Source of the DNA: Pelagibacteraceae bacterium AG-337-G06
Lineage (GTDB): Bacteria; Pseudomonadota; Alphaproteobacteria; Pelagibacterales; AG-422-B15
DNA length: 64,000 nt
Direction: 5' to 3'
Assembly: GCA_003282175.1 (NCBI GenBank)
Contig: QBZX01000007.1
Location: forward strand, 4,144 to 68,143
Shown: in pieces, positions 8,052 to 26,234 of the stretch
Layout: every line of letters starts with the position of its first letter
Position numbering within the stretch: position 1 is the stretch's first letter
The notes under the pieces: model-generated
Database searches by the model: none
Seen by the model: the letters and a program-made list of their open reading frames with translations, nothing else
Told to the model about the DNA's origin: nothing
Position numbers and translations under genes: made by a program

Positions 8052-8119
8052 CTTGATGCAACTTTATAAATTGATCACTAATGATCTGACAGACAAAGAT
8101 TATTACTTTTTGTTACTAT

Positions 8120-9310: not shown

Positions 9311-10047
9311 CAGATATCGTTTATACCATAATTAATCTTTCCTTCATCTACTCTTAAAGATGCCCTTCCTTCAATTCTTAAGTCAATTTCAATTATATTG
9401 CTCTGTAATACTTTTTCTTCGATAAATAAGTTCTTAAGGTTTTTAAGTGCATTATCTACTTTTGAATCAGGTAGTTTTATTAATAAATTATTTTTTAAAG
9501 TTAAATTCCATCTTCTTTTCTCAACAAAATCTAATTTACTTAATTGTGAAATAAGCTCATGAAAATGAATATTTAACTCCTTAATAAGGCCTTTAAGGGC
9601 CGATGGAGATTCGTCGCCTGAAATAATAATAAAGTTTTCAAGTTCATAGTCTTTATTTTTTTCAGTAATGATTGTTCCGTCAATATCTAAAAGATAATAT
9701 TTATCTTTATCTCTTAAAATTGCATATGGTTCATTTTCAATAATATCTAATACTAATGAGGATGGATAAATTTTTTTTAAATTTACTCTCTTGATCCATT
9801 TTTCTTGCTCAATAATCTCTTTAATCTTATGTAAATCCAAAGATAATAAATCAGAAGTATGATTATATATTTCTTCTTTAATTATACTTATATTTGATTT
9901 TTCTGAACCATTAATCTTTATGTGATTTAACAAAAAATATTTTGAGGCTAAGCTTGGAAAGTAATATATTGATACTGATATTGATAAAAGAAATATAATT
10001 AATATTGCACACACAATATTTATATATTTAACGGTTTGTTCCTGCAT
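9310..10047 (-). CDS. ftsQ: Cell division protein FtsQ/DivIB
   Basis: N-terminal TM, POTRA domain, RRWNL, IDLRIEGR; 20-bp overlap with ddl. Confidence 0.9.
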   Translation of the reverse strand: MQEQTVKYINIVCAILIIFLLSISVSIYYFPSLASKYFLLNHIKINGSEKSNISIIKEEIYNHTSDLLSLDLHKIKEIIEQEKWIKRVNLKKIYPSSLVLDIIENEPYAILRDKDKYYLLDIDGTIITEKNKDYELENFIIISGDESPSALKGLIKELNIHFHELISQLSKLDFVEKRRWNLTLKNNLLIKLPDSKVDNALKNLKNLFIEEKVLQSNIIEIDLRIEGRASLRVDEGKINYGINDI

Positions 10048-10939: not shown

Positions 10940-11859
10940 CTATTACCCAAAATTTTAATTTCCCACTCTAGTTCAATGCCTAATCTACTCTTGACTTCTT
11001 TTTTTATATTTTCACCAAAATCTTCAATTAAATTAGCAGAGTCTTTCTGTCTGTTGACTATAAAATTCGCATGTTTTTCTGAAAATGAAACTCCATTTAA
11101 TTCATATTTTCTTAATCCAGCTTTATCGATTAGTTGCCAGGCTTTAAGCTGGCCACTATCGAACGGATTTTTGAATGTACTTCCAGCAGTCATCACTTTT
11201 TGAGGCTGAGTGTCTTTTCTTTGATTATTGATTTCAACGATTTTTTTATTAATTACTAATGGATCTCCAATTTCTTTATTAAATTGAACCTCGCAGACTA
11301 TGTATTTATCTAAAAAATTATTTTTTCTGTAAGAAAATAATTCTTCAGAATAATTCAGTTCCATGGGCTCTCCCTGATTACTTAAGCATTTTGCTTTAAT
11401 GAAAATATCTTTAGTCTCAGATCCGAAGCACCCTGCATTCATGCGTGTAGCCCCTCCTACAGTGCCAGGTATTCCTGAATAAAATTCAAATCCAATTATT
11501 GAATTCTTCAAGCAATATTTTGATAAAACTTTATCTTGAACGGCCGCTCCTGCAAAAACTATATTCTTATCATGATAAATATTACTAAATTTATTACCTA
11601 ATCTGATGACGAGGCCTGGTATGCCTCCATCTCTAATAATTATATTTGATCCTAAACCAATAACTGTGACATCTATATCCTCTCCTTTGGTAGATAATAC
11701 CAATTGTAATTCTTCTAAACTTGAAGGAATGTAAAAGATTTCGGCATTACCACCAATTCCAAACCAACTATGTTTAGACAAATTATAATTAAATTTGTAT
11801 TTACCTTTTACTTTATTTCTTAAAAATATTTCATTAAGAATTTGCTGATTCTTATTCAT
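10936..11859 (-). CDS. murB: UDP-N-acetylmuramate dehydrogenase
   Basis: GLGSNIIIRDGG, GIPGTVGGATRMNAG, GSTFKNP, HANFIVN, LEWEI. Confidence 0.96.
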   Translation of the reverse strand: MNKNQQILNEIFLRNKVKGKYKFNYNLSKHSWFGIGGNAEIFYIPSSLEELQLVLSTKGEDIDVTVIGLGSNIIIRDGGIPGLVIRLGNKFSNIYHDKNIVFAGAAVQDKVLSKYCLKNSIIGFEFYSGIPGTVGGATRMNAGCFGSETKDIFIKAKCLSNQGEPMELNYSEELFSYRKNNFLDKYIVCEVQFNKEIGDPLVINKKIVEINNQRKDTQPQKVMTAGSTFKNPFDSGQLKAWQLIDKAGLRKYELNGVSFSEKHANFIVNRQKDSANLIEDFGENIKKEVKSRLGIELEWEIKILGNR

Positions 11860-13243
11860 ATATTTTTTTTAGGTTTTTAGTAAATTCTGAAGCCCATTGA
11901 GTCACTGTTCCAGCACCCAGAAATAAAAAAGTAAGTTTGTCATTACTAGACTTAATTAATTTCAGCAACTGCTCATCATTTTTATAGGCCTCTGCATTAA
12001 CTTTGGAATTTTTTTTAATACTTTTTATTAGTGATCGTAGATTAAAATTATTTGGTATCTTTTCTCCTGCTGAATAAACACGCGATACAAAGACCTGGTC
12101 ACATTTAATGAAACATTTGCTGAATTCTTTTTTTAAATTTATCAGTCGTGAATATCGATGAGGCTGAAAAATTATAATAAGTTTTCTTTTTGGATTTGAA
12201 TGATTCAGTCCCTCGATAACATTCTTAATTTCTGTTGGATGATGCGCATAATCGTCTATGATCGTGATATTTTTTTTATTCCAGAGTTGCGTAAGTCTTC
12301 TTTGTACGCCACTGAATTTAGATAAGGCTTTCTTTATTGTTCCATGATTTACATTGAGTTCTGAAGCGAGTGCTATAGCAGCTAAGGCATTACTAATGTT
12401 ATAATTGCCATGCATGGGTAAACTTATATTTTTAATTGTTTTACCAATTTTTTTTAACTCAACATTAAAAACTACTCCATTACTATTGTACCTTATTTTT
12501 TTACTCTGTATGTCACTGTTTTCAGCCTCTCCGTATGTAATTATATTTGCTGTAGTGATTTTATTTACTATTTTTCTTATTGAGGGGTCATCTAAGCATA
12601 CTATGGCAAATCCATAAAATGGAACTTGCGTAATAAATTTTTTAAATTGAAATAGTAAATTATTATAATTTTTATAGAAATCTAGATGTTCTTTATCAAT
12701 ATTAGTTACTATAGCAATCGTAGAAGGTAGTTTTACAAAAGTACCATCCGACTCATCCGCTTCAACAACCATCCATTTTCCTGAACCTAGTCTAGTATTT
12801 GTACCGAACTGATTGATAATACCTCCGTTGATGATCGTTGGGTTCATTTTTGCGGCATTCAAAATTGAAGAAACAAGAGACGTAGTTGTTGTTTTTCCAT
12901 GAGATCCTGAAACAGCAATTGAATTTTTTAGTTTTACAATTTGAGATAGTATTTCCGCTCTTGTTATTGACGGAATTTTATTTTTTTTTGCAAATTTTAA
13001 TTCAACATTGCTTTTCTTTACAGCTGTAGAATATACAATTAAGTTAACATTTTTTAAGTTTTCTTTCTTATGTCCCTTGAAAGTCTTAATGTTTTTTTTG
13101 TTTAAGCGAAGTATGTTTGAATTAATATTTATATCACTGCCCTGAACATGATATCGCATATCTGATAAAATTTCGGCAATACCGCTCATACCAATTCCAC
13201 CAATTCCAATTATATGTATCAATATATCTTTGTTAATTTTCAC
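11852..13243 (-). CDS. murC: UDP-N-acetylmuramate--L-alanine ligase
   Basis: IGIGGIGMSG, GSHGKTTT, EADESDG, DDYAHHP, FQPHRYSR. Confidence 0.97.
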   Translation of the reverse strand: MKINKDILIHIIGIGGIGMSGIAEILSDMRYHVQGSDININSNILRLNKKNIKTFKGHKKENLKNVNLIVYSTAVKKSNVELKFAKKNKIPSITRAEILSQIVKLKNSIAVSGSHGKTTTTSLVSSILNAAKMNPTIINGGIINQFGTNTRLGSGKWMVVEADESDGTFVKLPSTIAIVTNIDKEHLDFYKNYNNLLFQFKKFITQVPFYGFAIVCLDDPSIRKIVNKITTANIITYGEAENSDIQSKKIRYNSNGVVFNVELKKIGKTIKNISLPMHGNYNISNALAAIALASELNVNHGTIKKALSKFSGVQRRLTQLWNKKNITIIDDYAHHPTEIKNVIEGLNHSNPKRKLIIIFQPHRYSRLINLKKEFSKCFIKCDQVFVSRVYSAGEKIPNNFNLRSLIKSIKKNSKVNAEAYKNDEQLLKLIKSSNDKLTFLFLGAGTVTQWASEFTKNLKKIYE

Positions 13244-14298
13244 GAATTGCTCTCTAAATAATCTATTATTTTTTTAGATGGATTACTTATGCGTCTTGCT
13301 TTCAAGCGGTTTTTGATTAAATTCACTTTTTCATTATCATTAATTATTTCATTGATTGAATTCAGAATATTTTCTAGATTTACAGCTTCATTGGAAATAA
13401 TTTTTGTACATTCTGATGTATTCAAGTTTTTTGCATTGTAATATTGATGATTATCTGACGCATGTGGATAAGGTATCAGTATTGAAGGAATACAATAATA
13501 TATAATTTCATTAACTGTTGATGAACCTGACCTTGAAATTACTAAATCAGATCTTGATAGCACTTGTGCCATTTCATCAAAAAATACTCTTACATCATTC
13601 TTGATATTATGAGTCTTATAATAAGCTTGTAAACTCTCTAAGTCCTCTGATCTACACTGGTGAAAAACTATAATCCTCTTTTCACTGTTATCCTGAACTC
13701 TCTTAATGGACTCGGCGATATTAATAGATAAATTACGTGCTCCCTGGCTACCACCTATTATACATATCACAAAATTATTACTCGAATTATTCTTCAATAC
13801 TTTATCCTCTTTATTTATTCTTATAGGAAGGCCAACCATTTTATTATTAATATCTATTTTCTTTCCAGGGATTAAAGTATTTTCAAAACTTGTTAATAGA
13901 TCCTTAGTAAAGTTTAACAAAAATCTATTTGCTTTGCCGATAATCGCATTGCCTTCGTGTAAAAAGATTTTAAACCGCATTAACCATCCTGCAATTATGA
14001 CAGGGACAGTAAAATAGCCACCAAAGCCTAAAACAAAATCCGGTCTTAATTTTAAGTAATATGGAATTGACTGAATAAAAATATATGGAAGATTAATTAA
14101 ATTAGAGATTTTGCCTTGCTTATTAATTAGACTCTTTATTAATATTTTTTTCTTAATTGCAATATCTTTAAAGTATTTTAGCCCTCTTTCGTCTGTTAAA
14201 ATATAGCATTCATTTTTTTTGATTATCTCAGAATACAATACACTCATGGGTATGCAATGACCACCCGTTCCGCCACCAACAAGGAAGAATTTTTTCAT
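13240..14298 (-). CDS. murG: Lipid II GlcNAc transferase MurG
   Basis: GGGTGGH, FGGY, HEGNAIIGKAN, GGSQGA, SRSGSST, HQYYNA. Confidence 0.93.
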   Translation of the reverse strand: MKKFFLVGGGTGGHCIPMSVLYSEIIKKNECYILTDERGLKYFKDIAIKKKILIKSLINKQGKISNLINLPYIFIQSIPYYLKLRPDFVLGFGGYFTVPVIIAGWLMRFKIFLHEGNAIIGKANRFLLNFTKDLLTSFENTLIPGKKIDINNKMVGLPIRINKEDKVLKNNSSNNFVICIIGGSQGARNLSINIAESIKRVQDNSEKRIIVFHQCRSEDLESLQAYYKTHNIKNDVRVFFDEMAQVLSRSDLVISRSGSSTVNEIIYYCIPSILIPYPHASDNHQYYNAKNLNTSECTKIISNEAVNLENILNSINEIINDNEKVNLIKNRLKARRISNPSKKIIDYLESNS

Positions 14299-14313
14299 GC
14301 TATTTCCTACTCA

Positions 14314-15420
14314 TTAACTATGTCTATTTTTAGATAATAATAATATTAAGCCACATGTGATTGACATGCCTATAACAGATGAGCCCCCATAACTAATAAA
14401 AGGAAGTGTTATACCAGTTGTTGGAAGCAATCTAATATTTACTCCAATATGAATAAGAGCTTGAAGGCAAAAATATATTATTAAAGTAAATAAACTTATT
14501 TGTATAAAGTGATTGTTGCTATTGTATATTTTTCTGAATCCTTGATAAGAAATTATAAAGATTATTGTTAAAATTATTAGGCATCCTAATAAACCATACT
14601 CCTCCGCAATAACAGAAAATATATAATCTGAATTCGCTTCAGGAATTTTATTTTTTAATACACCATTTCCTGGACCTACACCTATGAGACCACCTTGTTT
14701 GATCGCCTGAAGTGATAATTCAGTCTGTGTTACATCATAATCATTAGGCGCTAGAAATGAATTAATTCTATTTTGTACATTGAAATTAAATAAATAAATA
14801 AAAACAAAAAATATACCACCAATAAAAATTATTGATGCAAGGACAATTATGCTAAATCCACTCATAAATATGGATGAAAAGTATATTGCTGAAATAAGAA
14901 ATAATTGACTAATGTCTGGCTGAAAAACCAATATTGCAGCCATCAATGCATAAATACTGAAACTAAGTGCATAATTTCTAAAACTATTTTTTAAACTTGG
15001 ATTATTTAAAATAGCTGCAAGTACGATACAGTAAAATGGCTTAATTAATTCAATAGGCATGATTGTAATATATTTTAAATTAATCCATCTCTTCGATCCT
15101 TTTATCTCCACTCCGTAAATTAATGTTAAAAATAGAATGACTATTAGAATTACAAATACAATTATTGATATATTTGGTATTCGTTCGTGATTAATAAACG
15201 AAAATAAAATGAATATAATAAAACCAGACAGTAAATAAAGTGCCTGAATATTAAAGTATGAAAAGAGATTATTGTTTATATACCTTGATGTACCGGGATT
15301 AATTGTAAGACTTATAAATAGTCCAACTGCAATAAGTACAAGCACACAAAAAAATATTGGTTTATTAATTTCATAAATCCAATCAGTTATAATAGATTTT
15401 TCTTTTTGAGTCGCTGTCAT
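14314..15420 (-). CDS. ftsW: Peptidoglycan polymerase FtsW (SEDS family)
   Basis: GSKRWI, QPD, DYIFSVIAEEYG, GITLPFISYGGSS; multi-TM; dcw position. Confidence 0.92.
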   Translation of the reverse strand: MTATQKEKSIITDWIYEINKPIFFCVLVLIAVGLFISLTINPGTSRYINNNLFSYFNIQALYLLSGFIIFILFSFINHERIPNISIIVFVILIVILFLTLIYGVEIKGSKRWINLKYITIMPIELIKPFYCIVLAAILNNPSLKNSFRNYALSFSIYALMAAILVFQPDISQLFLISAIYFSSIFMSGFSIIVLASIIFIGGIFFVFIYLFNFNVQNRINSFLAPNDYDVTQTELSLQAIKQGGLIGVGPGNGVLKNKIPEANSDYIFSVIAEEYGLLGCLIILTIIFIISYQGFRKIYNSNNHFIQISLFTLIIYFCLQALIHIGVNIRLLPTTGITLPFISYGGSSVIGMSITCGLILLLSKNRHS

Positions 15421-16739
15421 TTTAGAATCTCAGCTTTAATTTTTCTTCTAAAATCATCTCCTCTTTCTTCAAAATTATTGTATTGATCAAACGATGCAGC
15501 TCCAGGACTAAATAAAATAGTGCAATGTTCGTTCACAATATTTGCTATTGATAATGACATTTTAACTGCCTTATTTAGGTTTTTTACATATGAGGTATCC
15601 ACATACTTATTAAAATAATTGAAAAAAATATTTTTAGTTTCACCTATTACAATGGCCTTAATAACATTGTGTCGATTTTTATTTAATATATTGATTTTAT
15701 TACTTTTAATTTGCCCTCCACAAATCAAAATTATATTCTTGTAGTTGTTTAATGCTGGCACTAAAGATTCCAAATTTGTTGATTTAGAGTCATTTATTAC
15801 AATTAAATTCTTTCTTTTTACAAGAATCTCTTGTCTGTGAGGTAGTCCACTAAATGAAGAGAAAGATTTATAAATATCTGACGACTTTAAACCTAATTTT
15901 TTTAATATTAAAAAAGAAAAATATAAGTTCTGCATATTGTGTTTTTTTAATATCAAGCTAATTTTCTTATTATTTTTAAAACTGCTACTAATTTTTTTTA
16001 CAGGAATTAGCCGTTTAAGTTTTTTCTTATCTAAATTCGTAGTAGCGATTTTTTTTATATTTTTATTGGAATCATAATAACAAATATTTCTAGCACTTAT
16101 ATTCTGAAATATATTACACTTAGCAGTAGCATACTTATGCATAGTAATGTGACGATCTAAATGATCTGGTGTTAGGTTTAATATACAAGATATATCTGGC
16201 TTAAATATTTTTGCTAGCTCCAGCTGATATGATGAAAGCTCTAAAATATAGACACCATGATTTAACTTTTTTGAGGAAAATATAGGCTTTCCAATATTAC
16301 CTATCAAAACTGAGTTAATATTATTTTTTTTTAATGAATGATGAATCATGGAAACAGTTGTAGATTTTCCGTTAGTTCCAGTGATGCCGATAATCTTAAT
16401 TTTTTTTAATTTATTTATACTATTTATATAAAGTTGAAACAAATCAAGTTCACTAATTATCTTACATTTTTTAGATTTTAATCTTTTAATGTATTTATGT
16501 GCATTTTTTCCTGCAGTGACAATACTAGGACTTGGCATTATATATTCTATATTAGTTATATTCTTATCGTTAATTAGATGATAACCTTTTTTTCTTAATG
16601 CTTTTCTTTTATTAAGATCATCATCCCAGAAATAAACATTTGCACCACCTTTAAGCAGTGAATTGGAAACAGAAATACCTGTAATTCCCATTCCAATAAT
16701 AAGAAAATGTTTATTTTTAAATGATTTTAGTTTAATCAT
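15417..16739 (-). CDS. murD: UDP-MurNAc-L-Ala--D-Glu ligase
   Basis: GITGTNGKST, ELSSYQL, LNLTPDHLDRH, NDSKSTN, SPGAASFDQYNNFEERG. Confidence 0.95.
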   Translation of the reverse strand: MIKLKSFKNKHFLIIGMGITGISVSNSLLKGGANVYFWDDDLNKRKALRKKGYHLINDKNITNIEYIMPSPSIVTAGKNAHKYIKRLKSKKCKIISELDLFQLYINSINKLKKIKIIGITGTNGKSTTVSMIHHSLKKNNINSVLIGNIGKPIFSSKKLNHGVYILELSSYQLELAKIFKPDISCILNLTPDHLDRHITMHKYATAKCNIFQNISARNICYYDSNKNIKKIATTNLDKKKLKRLIPVKKISSSFKNNKKISLILKKHNMQNLYFSFLILKKLGLKSSDIYKSFSSFSGLPHRQEILVKRKNLIVINDSKSTNLESLVPALNNYKNIILICGGQIKSNKINILNKNRHNVIKAIVIGETKNIFFNYFNKYVDTSYVKNLNKAVKMSLSIANIVNEHCTILFSPGAASFDQYNNFEERGDDFRRKIKAEILK

Positions 16740-16743
16740 CCAT

Positions 16744-17826
16744 TTATCTGATTTTAAGTGTTGCTAACCCAATTAGTGCTAAAATTATTGCAACTATCCA
16801 AAAACGAATTACTATTTTTGATTCAGGTAGACCATTTTTTTCAAAATGATGATGTAATGGGGCCATTTTAAAAATTCTTTTTCCAGTTAATTTAAAAGAT
16901 GAGACTTGCAGTATTACAGATATTGCTTCAGCAACAAAAATACCTCCAACAATGGCTAAAACTATCTCCTGTTTTAATAAAATACTAATCGACCCTAATG
17001 CTGCTCCTAATGAAAGCGAGCCTGTATCTCCCATAAACACCATTGCAGGAGGAGCATTATACCATAAAAAGCCAAGCGCTGATCCTATTATTGCTGCACA
17101 CAAAACAGTAAGCTCACCCGCCCCTGGCAAATAATTTATAAATAAATATTCAGCAAAAATTATATTGCCAGCCAAATAACAAATTACAGCGAATGTTCCT
17201 GCAACAATCATTACAGGAACAATTGCTAGCCCGTCTAGACCATCGGTTAAATTTACTGCATTTGCTGATCCCAATATAACGATTAGAATAAAAGGTACTG
17301 CAAACAAACCTAAATTAATGAAAATATCTTTAAAAAAAGGTAATGATAAAAGCTTAATATCAATGTGATGATATTTAGTTATCCAATATATAAAAATTAG
17401 TGAAACAATGATTTGAAGAAATATTCTTATTTTGGCTGAAATACCTTTGCTTGAGTTATTTTTAACTTTATTGAAATCGTCTGCAAATCCAATTAAACCG
17501 AAAGAAACTAGTATAAATATAACTGGCCAAGATATAAAACTTTCTGGGTTTACCCAAAGCAAAATAGATCCAATAATGGAAAGCAATATGATGATTCCAC
17601 CCATGGTAGGCGTTCCCTTTTTAGCTATTATATGAGACTCTGGCCCGTCTTCCCTAATAGGCTGTCCGATAGACTGATAAGCACTAATCTTATTAATCAA
17701 TGCAGGTCCAAATAGCAATATAAAGAAGAAAGAAGTAAAAAGAGCGAAGCCAGTTCTTACAGTCAGATAATTGAAGAAATTATATAAGCCTGGGATATTT
17801 AAGTATTCTAAAATATATAATATCAT
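16744..17826 (-). CDS. mraY: Phospho-N-acetylmuramoyl-pentapeptide transferase
   Basis: KKGTPTMGG, NAVNLTDGLDGL, FMGDTGSL, MAPLHHHFE. Confidence 0.97.
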   Translation of the reverse strand: MILYILEYLNIPGLYNFFNYLTVRTGFALFTSFFFILLFGPALINKISAYQSIGQPIREDGPESHIIAKKGTPTMGGIIILLSIIGSILLWVNPESFISWPVIFILVSFGLIGFADDFNKVKNNSSKGISAKIRIFLQIIVSLIFIYWITKYHHIDIKLLSLPFFKDIFINLGLFAVPFILIVILGSANAVNLTDGLDGLAIVPVMIVAGTFAVICYLAGNIIFAEYLFINYLPGAGELTVLCAAIIGSALGFLWYNAPPAMVFMGDTGSLSLGAALGSISILLKQEIVLAIVGGIFVAEAISVILQVSSFKLTGKRIFKMAPLHHHFEKNGLPESKIVIRFWIVAIILALIGLATLKIR

Positions 17827-19199
17827 AAATTTTCTTGTTTAAGATGACTGATTAATCTTCTTATATTAATTGAATTAGATCCTTTAGCAAAAATTGTATA
17901 ATTACTCTCTATTATTTCATCAAGATTGTCGATAATCTGATCGATGTCTCTAAAAAAAGATATCTTATTATTTCGAATTTTGTTTTCTAACTTTTTGAAA
18001 TGCTTTCCGATAAATAAACATTTTTCAAATTTTTTCTTACTTAAAAACTTAATTAGATTACTATGATAGTAACTAGCCTTTTGACCCAGTTCATTCATAT
18101 CACCAATCAAATAAACAATATTCTTCTCTTTTAAGCTATCAAATATATCAATTGTTTGCTTCATTGAAATTGGGCTTGCATTATAGGAATGATCATAAAG
18201 CTTAAGTCTGTGACTATTATACTTACATCTAATCATATTTCCTCGCCCACTGGTGAATGGTACGTTTTTAAACTTTTTAATAAATCTATATTCAATGTTA
18301 AGTGCGTGTAAGCAAGTAAGAATTGCTAAGCAGTTATCGATTAGATTTTCCTGATCACTTCTAACGCCAAAACTAATTAATTTGTCTGTTGGAAGACTAA
18401 CTTTAAGCTGTATATTTTTTTTTGTTAACTTACTTTCTTTTATATAGACATTTGCATTATTTTTTTTGCTATAATTATAAATATTTTTTATCTTGGTATT
18501 TTTATAGTATCTATGTAACAGATTATAATAATTAGTGTCTTTGTTAAGAATTAGTGAGTCAATATTTTCTGAAGATGTAAATATTTCACTTTTCGCTACA
18601 GCAATCTCTTTTAAAGATTTAAAATTACCTAAGTGTACGTTTTCAATATTTAAAATAATGGAAATATTTGGTTTAAGTATTTTTACTAATCTTCTTATCT
18701 CTCCAGAATGATTCATGCCTAATTCGAAAAAACCAAATTTTGTTTTTCTTTGCATATTTAAAATTTCTAATGGCATTCCATATTTATTGTTATAAGACTG
18801 TCTCGAGCAAAAAATATTTCTATGCTCTTTTAAAATAAACGAAATTGCATCCTTAGTTCCAGTTTTCCCTACACTACCTGTAATTCCAATAATTTGAGTA
18901 TTGAGTAAGGACCTGTAATATCTAGCAAGAGATGATAATGCAGATAGAGTATTTTTTACCTTAATTTGCTTAAGGTTAGATTTAGAATTAATTTTTTGAA
19001 CAAATGCTATAGATGCACCCTTTTTTTCTGCTTGATTAATAAATTTATGGCCATCATTATTTTTTCCTTTAATTGCAAAAAAAATATTTCCTTTCTTTAA
19101 GGTTCTTGTATCAAGTGATGCACCTGTAATTTTTATTTCGCTGTGCTTAGTATTAAATAGATCATTAATCTCTAAAATTGAAATATGACTTGATCTCAT
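17823..19199 (-). CDS. murF: UDP-MurNAc-tripeptide--D-Ala-D-Ala ligase
   Basis: GITGSVGKT, SYNNKYG, ELGMNHSGEI, YNASPISM, GDMNELG, KGS. Confidence 0.93.
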   Translation of the reverse strand: MRSSHISILEINDLFNTKHSEIKITGASLDTRTLKKGNIFFAIKGKNNDGHKFINQAEKKGASIAFVQKINSKSNLKQIKVKNTLSALSSLARYYRSLLNTQIIGITGSVGKTGTKDAISFILKEHRNIFCSRQSYNNKYGMPLEILNMQRKTKFGFFELGMNHSGEIRRLVKILKPNISIILNIENVHLGNFKSLKEIAVAKSEIFTSSENIDSLILNKDTNYYNLLHRYYKNTKIKNIYNYSKKNNANVYIKESKLTKKNIQLKVSLPTDKLISFGVRSDQENLIDNCLAILTCLHALNIEYRFIKKFKNVPFTSGRGNMIRCKYNSHRLKLYDHSYNASPISMKQTIDIFDSLKEKNIVYLIGDMNELGQKASYYHSNLIKFLSKKKFEKCLFIGKHFKKLENKIRNNKISFFRDIDQIIDNLDEIIESNYTIFAKGSNSINIRRLISHLKQENL

Positions 19200-20632
19200 A
19201 ATTTTAGGAAACCTTTAGATATTTTCACATCATCAAAGGGGTAAACTTTGCCATTAATAATTTGATTTTTTTCATGCCCCTTGCCTGCAATAATTAATAA
19301 ATCTCCTTTTCTTAGTTGCTTGATTGTATGTTTTATTGCCTTTCTTCTATCTGAGATTTCCAAAAAGTTTTTGCAATCATCAATGATTTCTTTTCTAATT
19401 TTTTTTGCATTCTCAAAGCGCGGATTATCATCAGTTATAACAACATTATCTGCGTATTTAGAAGCAATTTTTCCCATCATTGGACGTTTTGAGTAATCTC
19501 TGTTTCCACCACATCCAAAAACTACATACAGCTCTGATTTACAAAGATTGCCGCCTTCTATTAAAGCATTTTCAAGAGCGTCGGGTGTGTGCGCAAAATC
19601 GATATATACAGAGGCACTGTTTCTTGTATTCCCCACAAATTCCATGCGACCTGGTACTGAAGGACATTTTAGACTTAATTTTTGAATCTTAGTTAAATTA
19701 TGACCCATAGAATAAAGCGTCAATGTTGCCAGTAAGAAGTTGTGTATTTGAAATAATGGAAAGTTAGCAAACTTAAATTTTTTAAGCTCTTTACCAAATT
19801 TTACATCGACTATTGTTGAGTTGTACTTGTTTTTTTTTATCTTGACTATTTTAAATTTATTATTTTTCTGAAAATATATTGGACTAATATTACTTTCTTT
19901 CTTTAAATAATTTTTAATTATATCAATATATTTAGTTTCAGTGTTAACTATGATTTTACTATCCTTTTTTACATAATCAGAAAATAATTTGAGCTTACTC
20001 ATTATGTAATGTGACATAGTTTTATGGTAATCTAAGTGATCTTGTGAAATGTTCGTAAGTACACAAGCATCAAATTTTAATCCATAAAACCTTTTTTGAT
20101 GCAAGCCATGACTTGATGCTTCCATTACAAGATACTTAATTTTATTTTTACTTAATTTTCTTAACTGTTTTGATAAGTCAATTGGCTCAGGAGAAGTTAG
20201 ATTTTCAGTATTAAGTTTTTTTATCTGAGAATTGCCCAAAGTACCTATTGTTGCCGTTTTTACTCCTAAATTTGATAATATATAATTTAAAAAATAAGTT
20301 ACTGATGTTTTTCCATTTGTTCCTGTTACAGCGATTTTTTTTTCTATTGTTTCACTATTGACCACGAATGCTGCTAAAGAAATTTCTTTTCGAATATCTT
20401 TTACCCTATAAATTGGGATATTTGACGAAATCTTTATTTTTTTTCTGATTGGAATAACTATTGCAGAGGCACCTTTAGCTACTGCGTCATTAACATACTT
20501 CATCCCATCAACATTACTTCCTGGGATTGCAAAGAAGATGTCCCCTTTCTTTATTATTCTCGAGTCAGAGCAAATATCTTTGTACTTAACCTTGTCTGAA
20601 TTTATTTTTTTTAGGAGACGACTATTTGTCAT
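19196..20632 (-). CDS. murE: UDP-MurNAc-L-Ala-D-Glu--2,6-diaminopimelate ligase
   Basis: VTGTNGKTS, MEASSHGL, DFAHTPDAL, DDNPR (meso-DAP specificity), AGKGHE. Confidence 0.96.
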   Translation of the reverse strand: MTNSRLLKKINSDKVKYKDICSDSRIIKKGDIFFAIPGSNVDGMKYVNDAVAKGASAIVIPIRKKIKISSNIPIYRVKDIRKEISLAAFVVNSETIEKKIAVTGTNGKTSVTYFLNYILSNLGVKTATIGTLGNSQIKKLNTENLTSPEPIDLSKQLRKLSKNKIKYLVMEASSHGLHQKRFYGLKFDACVLTNISQDHLDYHKTMSHYIMSKLKLFSDYVKKDSKIIVNTETKYIDIIKNYLKKESNISPIYFQKNNKFKIVKIKKNKYNSTIVDVKFGKELKKFKFANFPLFQIHNFLLATLTLYSMGHNLTKIQKLSLKCPSVPGRMEFVGNTRNSASVYIDFAHTPDALENALIEGGNLCKSELYVVFGCGGNRDYSKRPMMGKIASKYADNVVITDDNPRFENAKKIRKEIIDDCKNFLEISDRRKAIKHTIKQLRKGDLLIIAGKGHEKNQIINGKVYPFDDVKISKGFLKL

Positions 20633-22411
20633 TTATTGCAGTGATGTATTAATTAATAAGTTATCACTTGGTAAATATTTACTTTTTGTGTCTAAAATAG
20701 GACTAATCCTGTCTATAATTTGTCGCGAAACTCTTGCTGCATTCCAACCGGCATCTGTATAACCCCACGTATTAAAAGGCGTATCATATTCTCCAACTAT
20801 TCCTTTCGGATCATCTAGTGAAATAAGTACAAGATATTTTGGTTTATTGATTGGAAAAGCTGAGATAAACGTCGTCATTTTTTCATTAGCATAAGACTTA
20901 TTGTTTATTTTCCTAGCTGTTCCTGTTTTGCCTCCAACTAGATATTTATAATCACTATAGTTCCCAGTATACTTCTTATTGGAATCTTTTCCAAAAGCGT
21001 CTTTTGCAGTTCCCTCATCTACAACACGATTGAGTAAGTATCTCATAATCTCACTCGTTTGCTCTGAAAATATTCGATTTTTGAATAATTTATTATCTTT
21101 TTTTATTAATGACGGCTCTATAATGTAACCGCCATTTAATACTGTCGCAGTAGCTAAAGCTAAATGTAGAGGAGAAATTGATAGCCCATAACCATAAGAA
21201 ATGGACTCGGTATTAACCATTCTCCAAGGATCTGGAATAAGTGGCTCTGCTCGTTCAGGTAAGTTTACAATAACTTGATCAAAAAAACCTAAATCATATA
21301 AATAATTCTTCTGTAATTCTGGTCCAATATCTCTAATCATATTAATAGTTCCAACATTAGATGAGTACACAAATATTTCTTCAACTGTGCATTTTTTGGT
21401 TTCACAGGGGCGATGAACATCGTGTACTTTATGTTTACCTACATAAATGTGATCATCAATTTCATAAAGGGTATTTGGCTTAAATATATTTTCTTCAATT
21501 CCAATTGCTGTTGTAAATATTTTCATGACTGATCCAAATTCGTATACACCTAAAGTGTTTTTATTAAATGTAGAATTTTCATCAAAATTTTTGTTATTAG
21601 GGTCAAAGTCAGGAAGCGATACCATGGATAATATCTCTCCAGTATTTACCTCCATAACAAGTCCTGATCCACCAGTTGCTTTATATAATTTAATAGAGTC
21701 CAATATTTCATCTCTTACTATGTGTTGTATTCTTATATCTACTGAGGAAATAATATCGTTTTCATTTTGATTATTTAATAATGTATTAAAAGATTTTTCC
21801 ATTCCTGAGATACCATCGTTATCAATATCTACTTTTCCTATGAGATGGCTAAATAACTCCTTATGAAGATACTTTCTTTTATAAATATCTCTTATCTCTA
21901 TACCAGTTTCTCCAAGGTCAATAACTTTCTGAAGTTCATTGGGACTTATATTACGTTTCAAGTAAAACCATTTACCAGAATTAATTCTATTTTCTAAATC
22001 ATTTGCTGATATGTTGTAATGCAATGATGAGACTTTCTTAATGAATGCCTCATGATCATAAATTTTTTTAGGATCAATACCAACATCAGACATTTGTAAG
22101 TTAGCTGTTATAGAAATATTGTTTCTATCTAATATGTTACGCCTTTTCTCATCTATTGATGATATAAAATAACGATTTTTTTCAACATAAAAGAGATTAA
22201 TTTCAATCATTTTGATTGTAATTGCAATAAACAAAGTACTGAATATTATTGCTGACAAAATTAAACGATTATTAATCTTAAGTGCAAAGTTTTGCTTTAT
22301 TGAATTTAATTTATCAATAGCAAATTTTTCAGCATTGTATCGATGAGTAAATGAGAAACTTTTTTGATAAATATCTATTTTCTTTTTGCCAGAATTTTTT
22401 CTCTTTCTCAC
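20633..22411 (-). CDS. ftsI: Division transpeptidase FtsI (class B penicillin-binding protein)
   Basis: RRNILDRN, SxxK (GSVMK), SxN (SSN), KTG motifs; N-terminal TM; follows ftsL. Confidence 0.93.
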   Translation of the reverse strand: MRKRKNSGKKKIDIYQKSFSFTHRYNAEKFAIDKLNSIKQNFALKINNRLILSAIIFSTLFIAITIKMIEINLFYVEKNRYFISSIDEKRRNILDRNNISITANLQMSDVGIDPKKIYDHEAFIKKVSSLHYNISANDLENRINSGKWFYLKRNISPNELQKVIDLGETGIEIRDIYKRKYLHKELFSHLIGKVDIDNDGISGMEKSFNTLLNNQNENDIISSVDIRIQHIVRDEILDSIKLYKATGGSGLVMEVNTGEILSMVSLPDFDPNNKNFDENSTFNKNTLGVYEFGSVMKIFTTAIGIEENIFKPNTLYEIDDHIYVGKHKVHDVHRPCETKKCTVEEIFVYSSNVGTINMIRDIGPELQKNYLYDLGFFDQVIVNLPERAEPLIPDPWRMVNTESISYGYGLSISPLHLALATATVLNGGYIIEPSLIKKDNKLFKNRIFSEQTSEIMRYLLNRVVDEGTAKDAFGKDSNKKYTGNYSDYKYLVGGKTGTARKINNKSYANEKMTTFISAFPINKPKYLVLISLDDPKGIVGEYDTPFNTWGYTDAGWNAARVSRQIIDRISPILDTKSKYLPSDNLLINTSLQ

Positions 22412-22417
22412 AAAATT

Positions 22418-22762
22418 CTAACGTGCAGGGCTTATAATTTTCTTAGAAGGTATATCAACTGCAATGATATCTTGAAATACTTGATTTTCTTTACCTAGAT
22501 CATCTTTATCTAAAACTACAAAGTATTTAGTATAATCATTGGAAATAACCATTTCGGATATTTTTTTTAAATTTGTAGGAGAGATCATATGATCCCATTC
22601 TATTTTATACAGTTCACTCTTTTTCTGCTCCTCTCTCAAAGTAATTTCTAATTCGTTGATATAATTTTGCTTTTCAGCTGATATATTTTTTATGATCATT
22701 ATTGCAAGTAATCCTATCAGTAAGATGATCACTGATAAAATTTTAAATAAATAGCTAATCAT
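22418..22762 (-). CDS. ftsL: Cell division protein FtsL (alphaproteobacterial type)
   Basis: Single TM, coiled coil, EWDHMISPTNL; lies between rsmH and ftsI. Confidence 0.75.
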   Translation of the reverse strand: MISYLFKILSVIILLIGLLAIMIIKNISAEKQNYINELEITLREEQKKSELYKIEWDHMISPTNLKKISEMVISNDYTKYFVVLDKDDLGKENQVFQDIIAVDIPSKKIISPAR

Positions 22763-23682
22763 GATTGTTTAAATCCCAAATCTTCAATTGGTATATAACT
22801 AAATTCTAAATTATTCTTCTCATAGAATCTTAACTTAGCTGATCTAGATCTTGAATTATGTTCTATCTCTTCTTTGCTAGGTTTGAGAACTTTATTCAAT
22901 TTATTGTTTTGACTTACTATTTTTAAAAACTTTTTCACTAGTCTATCTTCAAGAGAATGAAAGGTAACTACATGCAAATTTCCATTTTTTTCTAAATATT
23001 TTAGTGCGTGATTAAGTCCGGAATGTAATTCTTCAATTTCGTTATTGATATAGATTCTTAAAGCTTGAAAAGTTTTAGTCGCAGGGTGTTTTTTATAATA
23101 TTTATTTGGAAAAGATTTCCTTACTACTTCTGCCAATTCTAAAGTTGTTTCAATATTTTTTGATTTGCGATAATTTTCAATTTCTCGAGCAATCCTCCTT
23201 GAGTTTCGCTCATCACCATAATAATAAATAATATCAGCTAATTCTGCGTGACTTTTTGAATTTACTACATCATAGGCAGTTGTACCTTTTTGACCCATTC
23301 GCATGTCTAACGGACCCTCTTTAATAAAAGAAAAGCCTCTTTCTGGAAAATCTAACTGCATTGATGAAACTCCTATATCAAATAAGAAACCGTTAATTTT
23401 TTTTTCCTTGGTTTTCTCCATAACTTCGTTAATTTGGCTAAATTTAGAATGGAAAAAATTGAACCTTTTGCCGTATTTTTTTTTAAATTCTCTAGCAATC
23501 TGTTTAGCATATGGATCCCTGTCAATTGCAATAATATTGCAGTTACTGACCTCAAGAAATTCTTTCGAGTACCCTCCATTTCCAAATGTTGCATCGAAGT
23601 AAGTCTCATTATCTTTAGGCCCAGTTAGTTTTATTATCTCCTTTATAAGAACTGGCTTATGAGCCAATTCTTTTTTTGTCAT
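22759..23682 (-). CDS. rsmH: 16S rRNA m4C1402 methyltransferase RsmH (MraW)
   Basis: [46 protein letters not shown]. Confidence 0.96.
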
Positions 23683-25205
23683 TTACTCTGTCTTCTAAGG
23701 AATGAAGGAATTTCTAACAGATCCTGATCAGTTTCATTTTCTTCAGTCAATTCTTCATCTTTAGGATCGTTCATATCGTCTAATTGATGAATATTTGGAC
23801 CGCTAAATAGATCAGGTGCATCTAACTCATCATTTTCTCTATTAGCATTTATCAGATCCATAATGCTATTAGGAGCTTCTTCCTCAGTGACCATCTCAGG
23901 CTCAGTAATTGGCTCTGGCTCAACTTCTTCTGCAGCCACCATTTCTGGTTCTGATATTTCTGGCTCAGTAATTGGCTCTGGCTCAGCTTCTTCTGAAGCC
24001 ACCATTTCTGGTTCTATCATAACTGCCGTATCTTCAAGATCAGTTTCAGAGTGAATATCAGAGTCTTCTCCATCCATGAACATATATGGATCAGAATTCT
24101 CTTTTACTTCTTCATTCGTATCTTCGTTACTAATTGAAGCTTGTATTGAATTTGAAGTTGCTGCTGGTGTAGCGGCAATTGATGATGCTGCTGAATTTCT
24201 TGTAATTTGTAAATCTACAATTGATTTAGTTGGCTTTGGATGTGAGTCTAGTCCCGTAGCTACAACAGAAACTCTTGCCTTACCCTCAAGTTTATCATCA
24301 AAAATTGATCCTACTATTACATCTGCATCTGGATGAACCTGCTCGCGTATCTCATTTGTAATTTTATCAACTTCATGAAGTGTAAGATCAGTCCCACCTG
24401 TTATATTAATAAGGAGTCCTTTAGCTCCATCAAGTGAATAGTCATCCAGTAATGGATTCGTTACAGCATTATGGGCACATTCAATAGCTCTATTTTCACC
24501 AGAAGCTTCTCCTGTTCCCATCATTGCGCGACCCATATTGTTCATGATAGTTTTAACATCTGCAAAATCTAAATTTATTAGACCAGGAACTACCATTAAA
24601 TCTGTAATACTTCTTACTCCTGCATGTAAAACATCATCCGCCATTGAAAAAGCATCTGCAAAAGTTGTTTTTTCATCAGCAACTTTGAATAAGTTTTGGT
24701 TTGGTATAACAATTGTCGTATCAACTAGATGCTCTAACTCTTTAAGACCTTGCTCAGCAATACGCATTCTTCCAGCGCCTTCAAATTGAAATGGTTTTGT
24801 AACAACTGCGACAGTTAGGATTCCCAATTCTTTAGCTACTCTTGCTATTACTGGTGCAGCACCAGTCCCGGTACCACCGCCCATGCCTGCTGTGATGAAA
24901 AGCATATTTGTTCCCTCTAAACGTTCCATGATTTCATGCTTAGTTTCATCAGCTGAAGATTTTCCAATATCAGGATGTGATCCTGCGCCTAGACCTTTTG
25001 TTACTTGAACTCCTAGTTGCATCTTTGAGTCACTTAATGATTTTGAAAGAGCTTGTGCATCCGTATTTGCCGCCACAAACTCAACACCTGACAAACCTGA
25101 GTCAATCATATTGTTAATTGCATTACCGCCTGCACCACCGACTCCAAATACAGTTATCTTAGGTTTAAGTTCTTTTAGTTCTGGAACGCTTAAATTTAAA
25201 ACCAT
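23679..25205 (-). CDS. ftsZ: Cell division protein FtsZ with long acidic linker
   Basis: [18 protein letters not shown] tubulin signature, NLDFAD, C-terminal peptide [10 protein letters not shown]; SD AGGAGG 9 nt upstream of ATG. Confidence 0.98.
23899..24015. repeat. Direct repeat in the ftsZ linker: 2 x 54 bp, 63-bp period
   Basis: ggctcagtaattggctctggctca(a/g)cttcttctg(c/a)agccaccatttctggttct at 23899-23952 and 23962-24015, 2 mismatches; encodes EPEMVA(S/A)EE(A/V)EPEPITEP. Confidence 0.92.
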
Positions 25206-25230
25206 GAAATTATCCTCCTATTTTCATTAG

Positions 25231-25683
25231 TTATTGATTACTCCATTTGAGATTTGCTAAATTATTCTTTGCACTATTTGTTATATCTTTTTTATAGTCC
25301 TCATATGAAGTCGGATTCCACATTTGAAATGTCTCGCCCATGCCTACAAATGAAACTTGATCAATAATTCCCGCTGATACAATTAATTCACCAGGTATTA
25401 TTACTCTACCGTCTTGATCAAAATGAATTTGATGACTATCTGCAAATATAGAAGATGAAAAAGTATTTCTTTCTTCACTGAAAGGTCCAGCAGATTCAAT
25501 TGCATCACTTATTTTTTGCATTCTATTAATTGCACACCCTTCAATTGATTGAAGAGTTGGTGAAGGGTAACAAATCATCCCCTTAAGGCCATTTTGTTCA
25601 AGTACACTTCTGAATGATGAAGGTACTGAAACACGACCTTTCTTGTCTATGCGATTAATATAGGTAGATAGAAACAGCGCCAT
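25231..25683 (-). CDS. mraZ: Division/cell wall cluster transcriptional regulator MraZ
   Basis: MALFLSTYINRIDKKGRVSVP, DQDGRVIIP, FVGMGETFQMW. ATG 25683 chosen; a TTG at 25716 behind GAGGT is an alternative start. Confidence 0.94.
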   Translation of the reverse strand: MALFLSTYINRIDKKGRVSVPSSFRSVLEQNGLKGMICYPSPTLQSIEGCAINRMQKISDAIESAGPFSEERNTFSSSIFADSHQIHFDQDGRVIIPGELIVSAGIIDQVSFVGMGETFQMWNPTSYEDYKKDITNSAKNNLANLKWSNQ

Positions 25684-25730
25684 GTTATAAAAAAAGTTAG
25701 TTATTAAAATAATCAACAAATTACCTCGTT

Positions 25731-25775
25731 TGGGTTAAATTGGGATTACATGGGATAGTATGGGATCAGATGGGC
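25731..25775. promoter_or_regulatory. Five MraZ-type binding boxes (TGGGN, 10-bp period)
   Basis: tgggttaaat tgggattaca tgggatagta tgggatcaga tgggc on the + strand, directly upstream of mraZ; matches the TGGGN direct repeats known to bind MraZ. Confidence 0.85.
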
Positions 25776-25878
25776 AATGTCTATAGCTTTTTTTCGAATT
25801 GTTATATTTTTCAGCAGCTTATAGGATAATTCACTTTAAGCAAATTTAATAAGTTATTGAAAATAAATAGATATAAAA

Positions 25879-26234
25879 TTGCCAGATAATCTATAAGCCG
25901 GGTTCTGTGATTTAATAAAAATCAATGACTATTCATCTAGTTCGAGTGTTACCACACGAATCATGCGATCAACCCAGTTACAGCCAAGACTAACTATTGT
26001 AACTCTATTTGATCTTGCTCCTGGTGGGGTTTACCGTGCCTTTTTTGTTACCAAAAAAGCGGTGAGCTCTTACCTCACCTTTTCACCCTTACCTTATAAA
26101 TTTCAATTAAGGCGGTTTATTTTCTGCGGCACTTTCCCTGGGGTCACCCCCGCCGGGTATTACCCGGCACCATTGTCTTGTGGAGCCCGGACTTTCCTCT
26201 TTACAAGTAAAGCAGTCATCCAATTATCTGGCAA
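25879..26234 (-). ncRNA. rnpB: RNase P RNA (type A)
   Basis: Minus strand has GAGGAAAGTCCGGGCTC, AGTGCCGCAGAAA, GGTAAACCCCAC and ACAGAACCCGGCTTATA; 12-bp P1 helix TTGCCAGATAAT/ATTATCTGGCAA; usual position between amidase and mraZ. Confidence 0.96.

Follow-up and report, generated by a model that had tools for sequence, protein, structure and literature searches.

Gene Content and Order of the dcw Locus

The window, a 64-kb stretch of DNA from Pelagibacteraceae bacterium AG-337-G06 analysed as a whole, carries a dcw cluster on its minus strand, where open reading frame coordinates together with NCBIfam and Pfam matches give the order rnpB, mraZ, ftsZ, rsmH, ftsL, ftsI … ftsQ, ftsA and lpxC. 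The mraZ-ftsZ-rsmH order, with ftsQ-ftsA-lpxC at the far end, had been put forward in an original prediction, and its reality in this window is confirmed. The features of the locus are as follows, in the direction of transcription:

25878-26231, minus strand: rnpB, RNase P RNA, class A (Rfam RF00010, 324 bits), directly upstream of the dcw promoter
25755-25783, minus strand: Pmra, a sigma-70-like promoter (TAGACA-17 nt-TACTAT) predicted by consensus scan
25731-25775, minus strand: putative MraZ boxes, five direct repeats with a 10-nt period, read from the sequence
25231-25683, minus strand: mraZ, 150 aa from ATG (NF001477, 150 bits; PF02381 in two stretches)
25206-25230, minus strand: mraZ-ftsZ spacer, 25 nt, ctaatgaaaatAGGAGGataatttc, with an AGGAGG Shine-Dalgarno sequence
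23679-25205, minus strand: ftsZ, 508 aa (TIGR00065, 410 bits, cutoff 295; PF00091 and PF12327)
23679-23682, minus strand: ATGA, overlap of the ftsZ stop (TGA) with the rsmH start (ATG)
22759-23682, minus strand: rsmH, 16S rRNA m4C1402 methyltransferase, now third in the cluster (TIGR00006, 306 bits)
9310-22762, minus strand: ftsL, ftsI, murE, murF, mraY, murD, ftsW, murG, murC, murB, ddl and ftsQ, in canonical order
9310-10047, minus strand: ftsQ
8120-9310, minus strand: ftsA, last division gene of the cluster (TIGR01174, 162 bits)
8052-8119, minus strand: ftsA-lpxC spacer, 68 nt, the vacated canonical ftsZ site
7122-8051, minus strand: lpxC (TIGR00325, 308 bits), followed by bamD and ligA, the ancestral downstream flank

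The first protein is identified as a member of the MraZ family by two SpoVT/AbrB-like half-domains (Pfam PF02381, 60.5 bits, cutoff 23), both with their DxxGR DNA-binding motif, here DKKGR and DQDGR; its NCBIfam equivalog score lies slightly under the curated cutoff (150 against 162). An alternative in-frame TTG start at 25719/25716, with GAGG ahead of it, would add 11-12 residues. The second protein is FtsZ, scoring above the equivalog cutoff and combining the tubulin-type GTPase domain with FtsZ_C in a layout of GTPase core, linker of ~160 aa and C-terminal peptide, and its translation contains both the GGGTGTG signature and the C-terminal FtsA-binding peptide. The linker region of ftsZ also holds a 63-bp repeat, missed by Tandem Repeats Finder and recovered by a separate repeat search.

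The cluster lies on one strand and is tightly packed, the genes from ftsL to ftsQ overlapping or following at short distances, and a scan of the mraZ-rsmH stretch found no terminator-like site on the coding strand. In the canonical form rsmH comes right after mraZ and ftsZ comes last, after ftsA; here ftsZ separates mraZ from rsmH and lpxC is the next gene after ftsA, so the cluster is a variant of dcw and not its canonical form. The junctions agree in every detail with those predicted (the 25-nt spacer with AGGAGG, ATGA at 23679-23682, and an ftsA-lpxC gap of 68 nt), and tblastn detected no FtsZ-like remnant in the 68-nt gap, as had also been claimed. A search for a second ftsZ had been suggested along with the prediction, and within the 64-kb window tblastn found none.

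Distribution of the Arrangement

The same arrangement was followed through 80 loci of Pelagibacterales (SAR11) that span subclade Ia, deeper marine clades, IIIa/HIMB114 and LD12. In 78 of the 80 ftsZ follows mraZ, in 59 rsmH follows ftsZ, none has the canonical order, and all 80 are consistent with ftsZ in second place. Misassembly, which the original prediction had allowed for, is effectively refuted as an explanation of the window, the identical junctions recurring in ~80 independent assemblies (SAGs, MAGs, isolate and complete genomes, including the single-contig or complete HIMB114, MiE-29 and ME-17) and the published locus tags of HTCC1062 (SAR11_0032 for ftsZ, SAR11_0033 for mraZ) implying the same order. 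The ftsZ-second order is real and ancient; it is the standard of Pelagibacterales, common to all sampled subclades, and the rearrangement is as old as had been supposed. It had been conceded that such an order might be both standard and already described in this lineage: standard it is, and no publication discussing the SAR11 dcw order was found in the literature searched.

The details of the junctions vary among the clades. Spacers of 12-35 nt with a Shine-Dalgarno sequence separate mraZ from ftsZ in all SAR11 clades. The ATGA overlap of ftsZ and rsmH is kept in the Ia-type clades and in L046, while IIIa and LD12 have spacers of ~5-30 nt instead, and the proposed dependence of rsmH translation on ftsZ through this overlap can stand for Ia-type clades only. 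Three Ia genomes, and marine SAR11 contigs whose FtsA identity is only 42-49%, likewise show the vacated site as ftsQ-ftsA-lpxC-bamD-ligA with ftsZ missing, and the ftsA-lpxC gap measures 62-78 nt in other SAR11.

Elsewhere the canonical order prevails at both ends of the cluster. At the mraZ loci of other Alphaproteobacteria rsmH adjoins mraZ in 26/26 cases, and ftsZ lies upstream of lpxC at 69 of 75 lpxC loci among the matches listed, a control drawn from a broad LpxC alignment with no SAR11 among the matches listed. A single-query LpxC search of genome contigs gave 4 loci, and the best 120 of 8000 matches in an FtsZ protein-database search were all close SAR11-like relatives. The upstream flank ampD-rnpB-mraZ is shared with Kiloniella, Rhodovibrionaceae and Parvibaculaceae, and the order ftsZ-lpxC-bamD-ligA is found in Hyphomonadaceae. 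Because the cluster has kept its ancestral flanks on both sides, only ftsZ moved, and a genuine relocation of this one gene is supported by the order kept among all other dcw genes.

The ftsZ-second order is absent from the other Alphaproteobacteria sampled, with the exception of two uncultured marine lineages in which ftsZ is promoter-proximal, here called X (mraZ-ftsZ-rsmH) and Y (mraZ-rsmH-ftsZ-ftsL). Both resemble SAR11 in their ampD-rnpB-box-mraZ flank and very tight junctions, and in both ftsA is followed directly by lpxC, with no ftsZ in that slot. Lineage X has the same order as SAR11 but a highly divergent FtsZ (GIGGTGGNIINSMI, ~52-57% core identity to other sequences), whereas in lineage Y ftsZ is third, after rsmH. 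Neighbour-joining trees grouped SAR11, X and Y in 48 of 200 replicates and gave no robust grouping of X or Y with SAR11; such trees being prone to compositional attraction, no claim of common ancestry is made. In GC content lineage X matches AEGEAN-169/HIMB59, and Y is the sister of X.

Origin of the ftsZ Gene

The relocated gene is more GC-rich than its neighbours (0.385 against 0.24-0.33), as the original prediction had noticed by eye, and this is what speaks for a xenologous replacement, in which a foreign ftsZ was inserted beside mraZ before the native copy disappeared from its place after ftsA. The excess resides in codon positions 1 and 2 alone, where it reflects a protein rich in Gly, Ala, Val and Glu, while GC3 is 0.204, like that of the neighbours (0.17-0.25); after the analysis by codon position the argument from GC for a foreign origin was rejected. 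In the FtsZ tree that had been proposed alongside a foreign origin, built by neighbour joining with bootstrap, SAR11 and other Alphaproteobacteria group in 100/100 replicates and SAR11 is monophyletic in 78-88/100, its branching order matching the subclades. The FtsZ core shares 62-70% identity with alphaproteobacterial sequences and 49-54% with those of beta- and gammaproteobacteria, and the N-terminal motif is identical in the window and in other alphaproteobacteria. Since the trees place SAR11 inside the Alphaproteobacteria, xenologous replacement is unsupported and very improbable, and these comparisons establish a vertical, alphaproteobacterial descent as the origin of ftsZ.

Promoter and Transcription of mraZ-ftsZ

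Pmra is the sole promoter-like site that the consensus scan found upstream of mraZ-ftsZ on the minus strand, and TAGACA/TTGACT occurs at the same position across SAR11 clades and other alphaproteobacteria. The putative MraZ boxes read GCCCA, TCCCA, TCCCA, TCCCA and ACCCA (TGGGA on the opposite strand), and their array overlaps the -10 hexamer and the predicted start site. The pattern WCCCA-N5-WCCCA-N5-WCCCA occurs once in the window and in 0/100 shuffles, and the array is conserved in all SAR11 clades, in other alphaproteobacteria and in lineages X and Y. The cluster thus begins with mraZ behind a promoter with at least three direct putative MraZ boxes, at a 10-bp period equal to that of the E. 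coli and Mycoplasma MraZ operators. The known MraZ box is GTG(G/T) with 6-nt spacers, and MraZ acts as a repressor or an activator depending on the species (PMC12957436). In E. coli three GTGGG boxes with the same period lie on the sense strand downstream of the -10 hexamer, whereas the SAR11 boxes are antisense TGGGA over the -10 hexamer and predicted start, a layout that SAR11 shares with other Alphaproteobacteria. We assume that SAR11 MraZ binds these antisense TGGGA boxes, unlike its E. coli counterpart with sense GTGGG. These features identify the predicted promoter upstream of mraZ as the ancestral alphaproteobacterial mraZ promoter, overlapped by four to five putative MraZ boxes, and ftsZ stands right downstream of it, just where the original prediction had placed it.

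With this lone box-bearing mraZ promoter and with tight junctions that lack terminators, MraZ-controlled co-transcription of mraZ and ftsZ is likely. RNA folding found no structure at the mraZ-ftsZ junction beyond that of shuffled sequence (z = +0.73), and no attenuator or processing hairpin is therefore proposed.

The proximity of ftsZ to mraZ would not mean control by MraZ if the 3' end of mraZ housed an ftsZ promoter independent of MraZ, or an RNA-processing site. The stretch is indeed constrained: among 39 Ia-type sequences the entropy of the spacer is 0.05, so that it is nearly invariant, and third-position entropy drops to 0.14 in mraZ codons 141-150 and to 0.31 over ftsZ codons 1-15; the means at synonymous sites are 0.58-0.68, with 0.58 for mraZ. 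A precedent also exists, since E. coli ftsZ depends on several internal promoters. However, the consensus scan found no -35/-10 match in the mraZ 3' end, the nucleotides of this end and of the spacer are unconserved across Ia, IIIa and LD12 apart from the LKW codons and the Shine-Dalgarno sequence, and an unstructured translation-initiation region would account for the constraint just as well. We regard such an internal site as unlikely.

An Ancient Relocation Within the Cluster

The reading that we favour, with a probability of roughly three in four, is that of a standard Pelagibacterales dcw cluster that underwent one ancient intragenomic move of ftsZ, with MraZ-governed co-transcription as its predicted consequence. 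The gene moved from the slot between ftsA and lpxC to the slot between mraZ and rsmH while all else stayed; exactly the tidy outcome that is seen would result if the rsmH…ftsZ segment had been duplicated in tandem and genes had then been lost reciprocally from the two copies. A single mRNA from Pmra would then carry mraZ, ftsZ, rsmH and the downstream genes of the 17.6-kb operon, and FtsZ synthesis would come under the autoregulation of MraZ. The strong, conserved Shine-Dalgarno sequence would ensure high FtsZ translation, with rsmH translated by coupling or re-initiation, and it may be the promoter-proximal position, and not dedicated internal promoters, that keeps the FtsZ level higher than that of FtsA, whose gene follows ~15 kb downstream in the operon. 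Such an arrangement would suit a streamlined organism in which CtrA is missing along with many further cell-cycle regulators: a ctrA orthologue is absent from Pelagibacter (PMC2877005), and many cell-cycle regulators are missing in SAR11 (bioRxiv 10.1101/2025.06.25.661606).

The relocation may also be real and yet neutral for regulation, a chance rearrangement (e.g., duplication then loss) that was fixed in the SAR11 ancestor, with the FtsZ level set mainly by translation and turnover and not by operon position or MraZ. The order would then be frozen because a further break would disrupt an essential operon. No sequence feature demonstrates a fitness effect, the gene order within SAR11 operons is extremely conserved in general (PMC3448164), and lineage Y tolerates another slot for ftsZ, after rsmH. 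An adaptive rationale is unnecessary, as a neutral intra-operon rearrangement would also be preserved. Against neutrality, the dcw order is otherwise rigid (the 26/26 mraZ loci and, among the matches listed, the 69/75 lpxC loci), every deviation found, in at most three streamlined marine lineages, brings ftsZ closer to the promoter, and the translation signals at the junctions are strong and nearly invariant. A neutral relocation appears to us the lesser possibility, though the best placed of the alternatives.

Comparison With Known dcw Systems

The relocation, with the MraZ-governed transcription predicted for it, can be set against three known systems. The canonical E. coli cluster (mraZ-rsmH-ftsL-ftsI-murE-murF-mraY-murD-ftsW-murG-murC-ddlB-ftsQ-ftsA-ftsZ-lpxC) shares with SAR11 the same genes on one strand, an order equal but for one gene, mraZ in first place, a box array of 10-bp period at the promoter and lpxC after the cluster; in SAR11, however, ftsZ is second and not last, and ftsA abuts lpxC. 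The minimal cluster of Mycoplasma genitalium is mraZ-mraW-MG_223/ftsA*-ftsZ (PMC12957436, PMC8475190), and the Mollicutes resemble SAR11 in having ftsZ a few genes from mraZ in a streamlined genome, their ftsZ being transcribed from the MraZ-box promoter. The resemblance, to which the original prediction had alluded, proves superficial: in Mollicutes the proximity arose through deletion of intervening cell-wall genes and ftsZ is still last, whereas SAR11 keeps all 16 genes, including the mur genes, mraY, ftsW and ftsI, and has changed the rank of ftsZ, which now stands ahead of rsmH. Caulobacter crescentus resembles SAR11 in its FtsZ, which is alphaproteobacterial and has both a long, disordered C-terminal linker and a LEIPxFLRRQ tail, but it keeps ftsA-ftsZ and transcribes ftsZ from its own cell-cycle promoter under CtrA, DnaA and CcrM/GcrA control (PMC2877005), while Pelagibacter has neither the ctrA orthologue nor a recognisable ftsZ promoter of its own.

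Significance

The dcw cluster is the classic example of a gene order that is conserved across Bacteria, with ftsZ normally last, and here an order-wide variant is found in the most abundant marine bacteria, which are studied for their fragile, regulator-poor cell cycle (without CtrA, MinCD and MipZ). From the gene order and promoter we infer a regulatory effect that supplies a testable hypothesis for the FtsZ level and the FtsZ:FtsA ratio of SAR11, namely operon position plus MraZ autoregulation. The arrangement also bears on growth indices derived in the field from ftsZ transcripts, in some cases with normalisation to RNase P RNA: in SAR11 ftsZ and the RNase P RNA gene fall within the same 2.6 kb, and the mraZ mRNA probably includes ftsZ. 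The arrangements of lineages X and Y may furthermore provide a rare-genomic-change marker for deep alphaproteobacterial relationships, which are confounded by base-composition artefacts. Only tentatively can it be suggested, as a rather doubtful extension, that the promoter-ward shift of ftsZ is one rare genomic change common to Pelagibacterales, X and Y. If inherited from a common ancestor, the shift would be a composition-independent character for the disputed relationship of SAR11 and HIMB59; if convergent, it would point to selection for FtsZ expression from the MraZ promoter in cells without CtrA-type control. Under either history, if the suggestion is true, the main transcriptional control of FtsZ in the most abundant bacteria of the ocean would lie with MraZ.

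Position of ftsZ in Pelagibacterales

A complete cluster of genes for division and the cell wall (dcw), delimited by ORF coordinates and NCBIfam/Pfam matches, occupies the minus strand of the window, with ftsZ second, between mraZ and rsmH.

Features of the dcw cluster in the window (protein-coding genes from ORFs with NCBIfam/Pfam matches)
25878-26231, minus, RNase P RNA (rnpB), just upstream of mraZ
25231-25683, minus, mraZ
23679-25205, minus, ftsZ (508 aa; TIGR00065, 410 bits)
22759-23682, minus, rsmH
minus, ftsL, ftsI, murE, murF, mraY, murD, ftsW, murG, murC, murB, ddl
9310-10047, minus, ftsQ
8120-9310, minus, ftsA
7122-8051, minus, lpxC, then bamD and ligA

The junctions described in the original prediction are all present in the sequence: a 25-nt mraZ-ftsZ spacer with AGGAGG, an ATGA overlap of the ftsZ stop and rsmH start (23679-23682) and a 68-nt ftsA-lpxC gap. 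As also predicted, no ftsZ remnant follows ftsA, and tblastn across the 64-kb window found neither a remnant nor a second ftsZ. The window FtsZ is 87-97% identical to that of Pelagibacteraceae single-cell genomes (SAGs), which places the window in SAR11, close to subclade Ia. Comparison loci were each re-annotated using the window's proteins, and mraZ is directly followed by ftsZ in 78 of 80 Pelagibacterales loci, none of which has the canonical order; ftsZ is directly followed by rsmH in 59, the rest being truncated contigs. The loci come from Ia, from deeper marine clades (MraZ 60-71% identical), and from AG-439-H11, IIIa (HIMB114) and freshwater LD12/Fonsibacter, with single-contig and complete genomes among them. 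The order is thus standard in the lineage, and no paper discussing it was found in the full-text literature searched, which does not include Megrian et al. (2022), the principal survey of how dcw clusters evolved; nor did a targeted look through the SAR11 cell-cycle preprint, a SAR11 comparative-genomics paper and the AEGEAN-169 paper bring up any discussion of it.

The C-terminal linker of ftsZ (23893-24015) contains an imperfect 63-bp (21-aa) tandem repeat with copies 93% identical. In the Pelagibacterales loci FtsZ ranges between 485 and 606 aa, and many SAG contigs stop inside the linker, near residues 365-390, suggesting that it is hypervariable and breaks assemblies. In one LD12-type MAG (L075, ~7050-7460) the frame is broken in the linker, 385 aa being followed by the conserved C-terminus in another frame, probably through an assembly frameshift.

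Promoter, Junctions and Proposed Regulation

A promoter scan found one promoter-like site upstream on the coding strand, TAGACA-17-TACTAT (25783-25755, minus), at the mraZ promoter, Pmra. Over it lie five direct repeats, one every 10 nt (25775-25731; GCCCA, three TCCCA and ACCCA), which represent putative MraZ boxes; their three-box pattern occurs once in the window and in 0 of 100 shuffles, and three to five such boxes are kept at the promoter in all SAR11 clades. A TTGACA plus CCCA-box layout is also found in Kiloniella, UBA2966, Parvibaculaceae and others, and the SAR11 Pmra is therefore ancestral to alphaproteobacteria and no SAR11 invention. The array matches the period of the known MraZ operator, boxes of GTG(G/T) separated by six nucleotides (PMC12957436). 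In E. coli (L081, 186-215), three GTGGG boxes lie downstream of the -10 in sense orientation, whereas in alphaproteobacteria the boxes are antisense, reading TGGGA, and extend over both the -10 hexamer and the predicted start site, a difference of which no mention was found in the MraZ structure paper. Boxes resembling the LD12 operator (ACCAT/CCCAT, 10-nt period) also lie upstream of mraZ in two AT-rich marine 'Rickettsiales bacterium SI075' bins of canonical order (L179, L180).

The 50 nt before the mraZ ATG (leader, 25684-25734) are near-invariant in Ia-type genomes (entropy 0.05-0.2 vs. 0.58 at synonymous sites). Here GAGG and an in-frame TTG (25719/25716) give mraZ a stop-free extension of 11-12 codons (LLIILITNFFYN), whose frame, judged by eye from upstream sequences, is open too in several relatives (e.g., L040, L041, L043, L045); in IIIa and in an uncultured marine lineage named X here, the start codon comes immediately past the boxes. 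Translation of MraZ may begin at this TTG; alternatively, the leader may serve some function in itself. From mraZ to rsmH, the coding strand shows no terminator-like site. The mraZ-ftsZ spacer measures 12-35 nt across clades and carries a strong Shine-Dalgarno sequence (SD), and ftsZ and rsmH overlap by 4 nt in Ia-type clades or are spaced by ~5-30 nt in IIIa/LD12.

We infer that mraZ-ftsZ-rsmH-… forms a single transcript from Pmra, so that FtsZ synthesis would follow MraZ autoregulation. The strong SD would secure high FtsZ output, rsmH would be translated via coupling or re-initiation, and the promoter-proximal place would stand in for the dedicated ftsZ promoters of E. coli and Caulobacter. 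The order might instead reflect a neutral rearrangement that operon constraints then froze in place, to which we would give perhaps one chance in a few. Slightly less probable is a promoter inside the mraZ 3' end. Such a hidden promoter, or an RNA processing site at the junction, may underlie the suppressed third-position variation there: among 39 Ia-type sequences, third-position entropy drops to 0.14 over the final ten codons of mraZ and to 0.31 over the opening 15 codons of ftsZ (means 0.58-0.68), with an entropy of 0.05 in the spacer. RNA spanning the junction has no more structure than shuffled sequence, and we read this constrained stretch as an open translation-initiation region.

Origin of the Rearrangement

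Outside Pelagibacterales, four alphaproteobacterial FtsZ loci show ddl-ftsQ-ftsA-ftsZ-lpxC-bamD-ligA, ftsZ stands upstream of lpxC in 69 of the 75 lpxC loci having enough upstream DNA, and rsmH directly follows mraZ in 26/26 mraZ loci from other Alphaproteobacteria, including the lineages with the most SAR11-like MraZ, AT-rich marine bins, Rickettsiaceae, Kiloniella, Parvibaculaceae and UBA2966. SAR11 shares the upstream flank ampD-rnpB-mraZ with many other alphaproteobacteria (window 25878-26231; L051, L057, L174, L181, L185, L194, L195, L204, L206, L207) and the downstream flank lpxC-bamD-ligA with Hyphomonadaceae. The flanks are ancestral and ftsZ is the sole gene to have changed place, its rank being the one defining departure from the canonical cluster. 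The loose likeness to the minimal Mycoplasma operon once suggested is superficial: this is no Mollicutes-type minimal operon, because every cell-wall gene is present. So tidy an order could have arisen if the rsmH…ftsZ segment was duplicated in tandem and the copies then underwent reciprocal loss. Among the comparison loci, one labelled 'Halopseudomonas aestusnigri MAG' (L182) shares 91% identity with a Rhodospirillales MAG across 10.4 kb and 81% with Kiloniella antarctica, and looks like a misbinned alphaproteobacterial contig.

The gene is indeed richer in GC than its neighbours (0.385), as originally noted, but the xenologous replacement offered as an alternative is unsupported and very improbable. 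Its GC3 (0.204) lies inside the neighbours' range (0.17-0.25), and the excess, in codon positions 1 (0.57) and 2 (0.38), reflects amino-acid composition. In its core, FtsZ shares 62-70% identity with alphaproteobacterial FtsZ vs. 49-54% with beta- and gammaproteobacterial FtsZ, the 14-residue N-terminal motif is identical in SAR11 and other alphaproteobacteria, and an FtsZ NJ tree joins SAR11 to Alphaproteobacteria in 100/100 bootstraps (SAR11 monophyly 78/100), with internal branching that matches the subclades. The gene has thus been inherited vertically. An assembly artefact has next to no probability, and misassembly is excluded by the recurrence of the junctions in about 80 independent SAR11 assemblies. 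The emptied site, ftsQ-ftsA-lpxC-bamD-ligA without ftsZ, recurs in three Ia genomes and in marine SAR11 contigs with FtsA just 42-49% identical, and the tables published for HTCC1062 contain SAR11_0034 (ybjR), RNase P RNA, SAR11_0033 (mraZ) and SAR11_0032 (ftsZ), so the order has been publicly annotated since the first SAR11 genome.

When MraZ was searched against cluster representatives and the nearest non-SAR11 lineages were followed, these proved mostly canonical, with two abundant uncultured marine lineages, X and Y, deviating. Lineage X (MraZ cluster P0228; L199/L206/L208; 'Alphaproteobacteria bacterium') has the SAR11 order, ampD-rnpB-mraZ-ftsZ-rsmH-…-ftsA-lpxC-bamD, on contigs of 1.53-1.58 Mb with local GC of 0.27-0.33; size and GC fit the published ranges of AEGEAN-169/HIMB59 (1.26-1.84 Mbp, 27-32.5% GC; PMC10308909), a candidate identity. 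On its 1.53-Mb long-read contig (L206/L208), murE, murF, murC, murB and ftsQ seem to be divided or truncated into multiple short ORFs, most likely by indel errors in a polished long-read contig and not as pseudogenes. Lineage Y (L201/L207/L209; from mesopelagic Tara samples; GC 0.35-0.39; 'Rickettsiales bacterium' in NCBI, under the consecutive accessions MBV31319-21) has ftsZ third, in ampD-rnpB-mraZ-rsmH-ftsZ-ftsL-ftsI-…-ftsQ-ftsA-lpxC-bamD-ligA. In both, lpxC directly follows ftsA, and MraZ boxes and extremely tight junctions are present; in Y the beginning of ftsZ and the end of rsmH share 11 nt, and the TAG of ftsZ runs straight into the ATG of ftsL. An NJ tree of MraZ+RsmH+FtsI makes X and Y sisters in 164/200 replicates and groups SAR11+X+Y in just 48/200, a grouping not recovered in the FtsZ tree, and such trees are vulnerable to compositional attraction; the ftsZ shift in X, Y and SAR11 may be due either to common ancestry or to convergence.

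Biological Significance

A single 2.6-kb stretch contains both RNase P RNA and ftsZ in SAR11, their near ends ~670 nt apart, a closeness that bears on the ftsZ:RNase P transcript ratio used as a growth index in a 2026 study (PMC13349992). The relocation of ftsZ is real and ancient and defines the lineage; moderately interesting taken alone, it would be more so if the link to X and Y or the MraZ-FtsZ wiring were confirmed. A promoter-proximal ftsZ governed by MraZ would plausibly fit organisms without a ctrA orthologue, as is the case in Pelagibacter (PMC2877005), and with few cell-cycle regulators, as in SAR11 (bioRxiv 10.1101/2025.06.25.661606).
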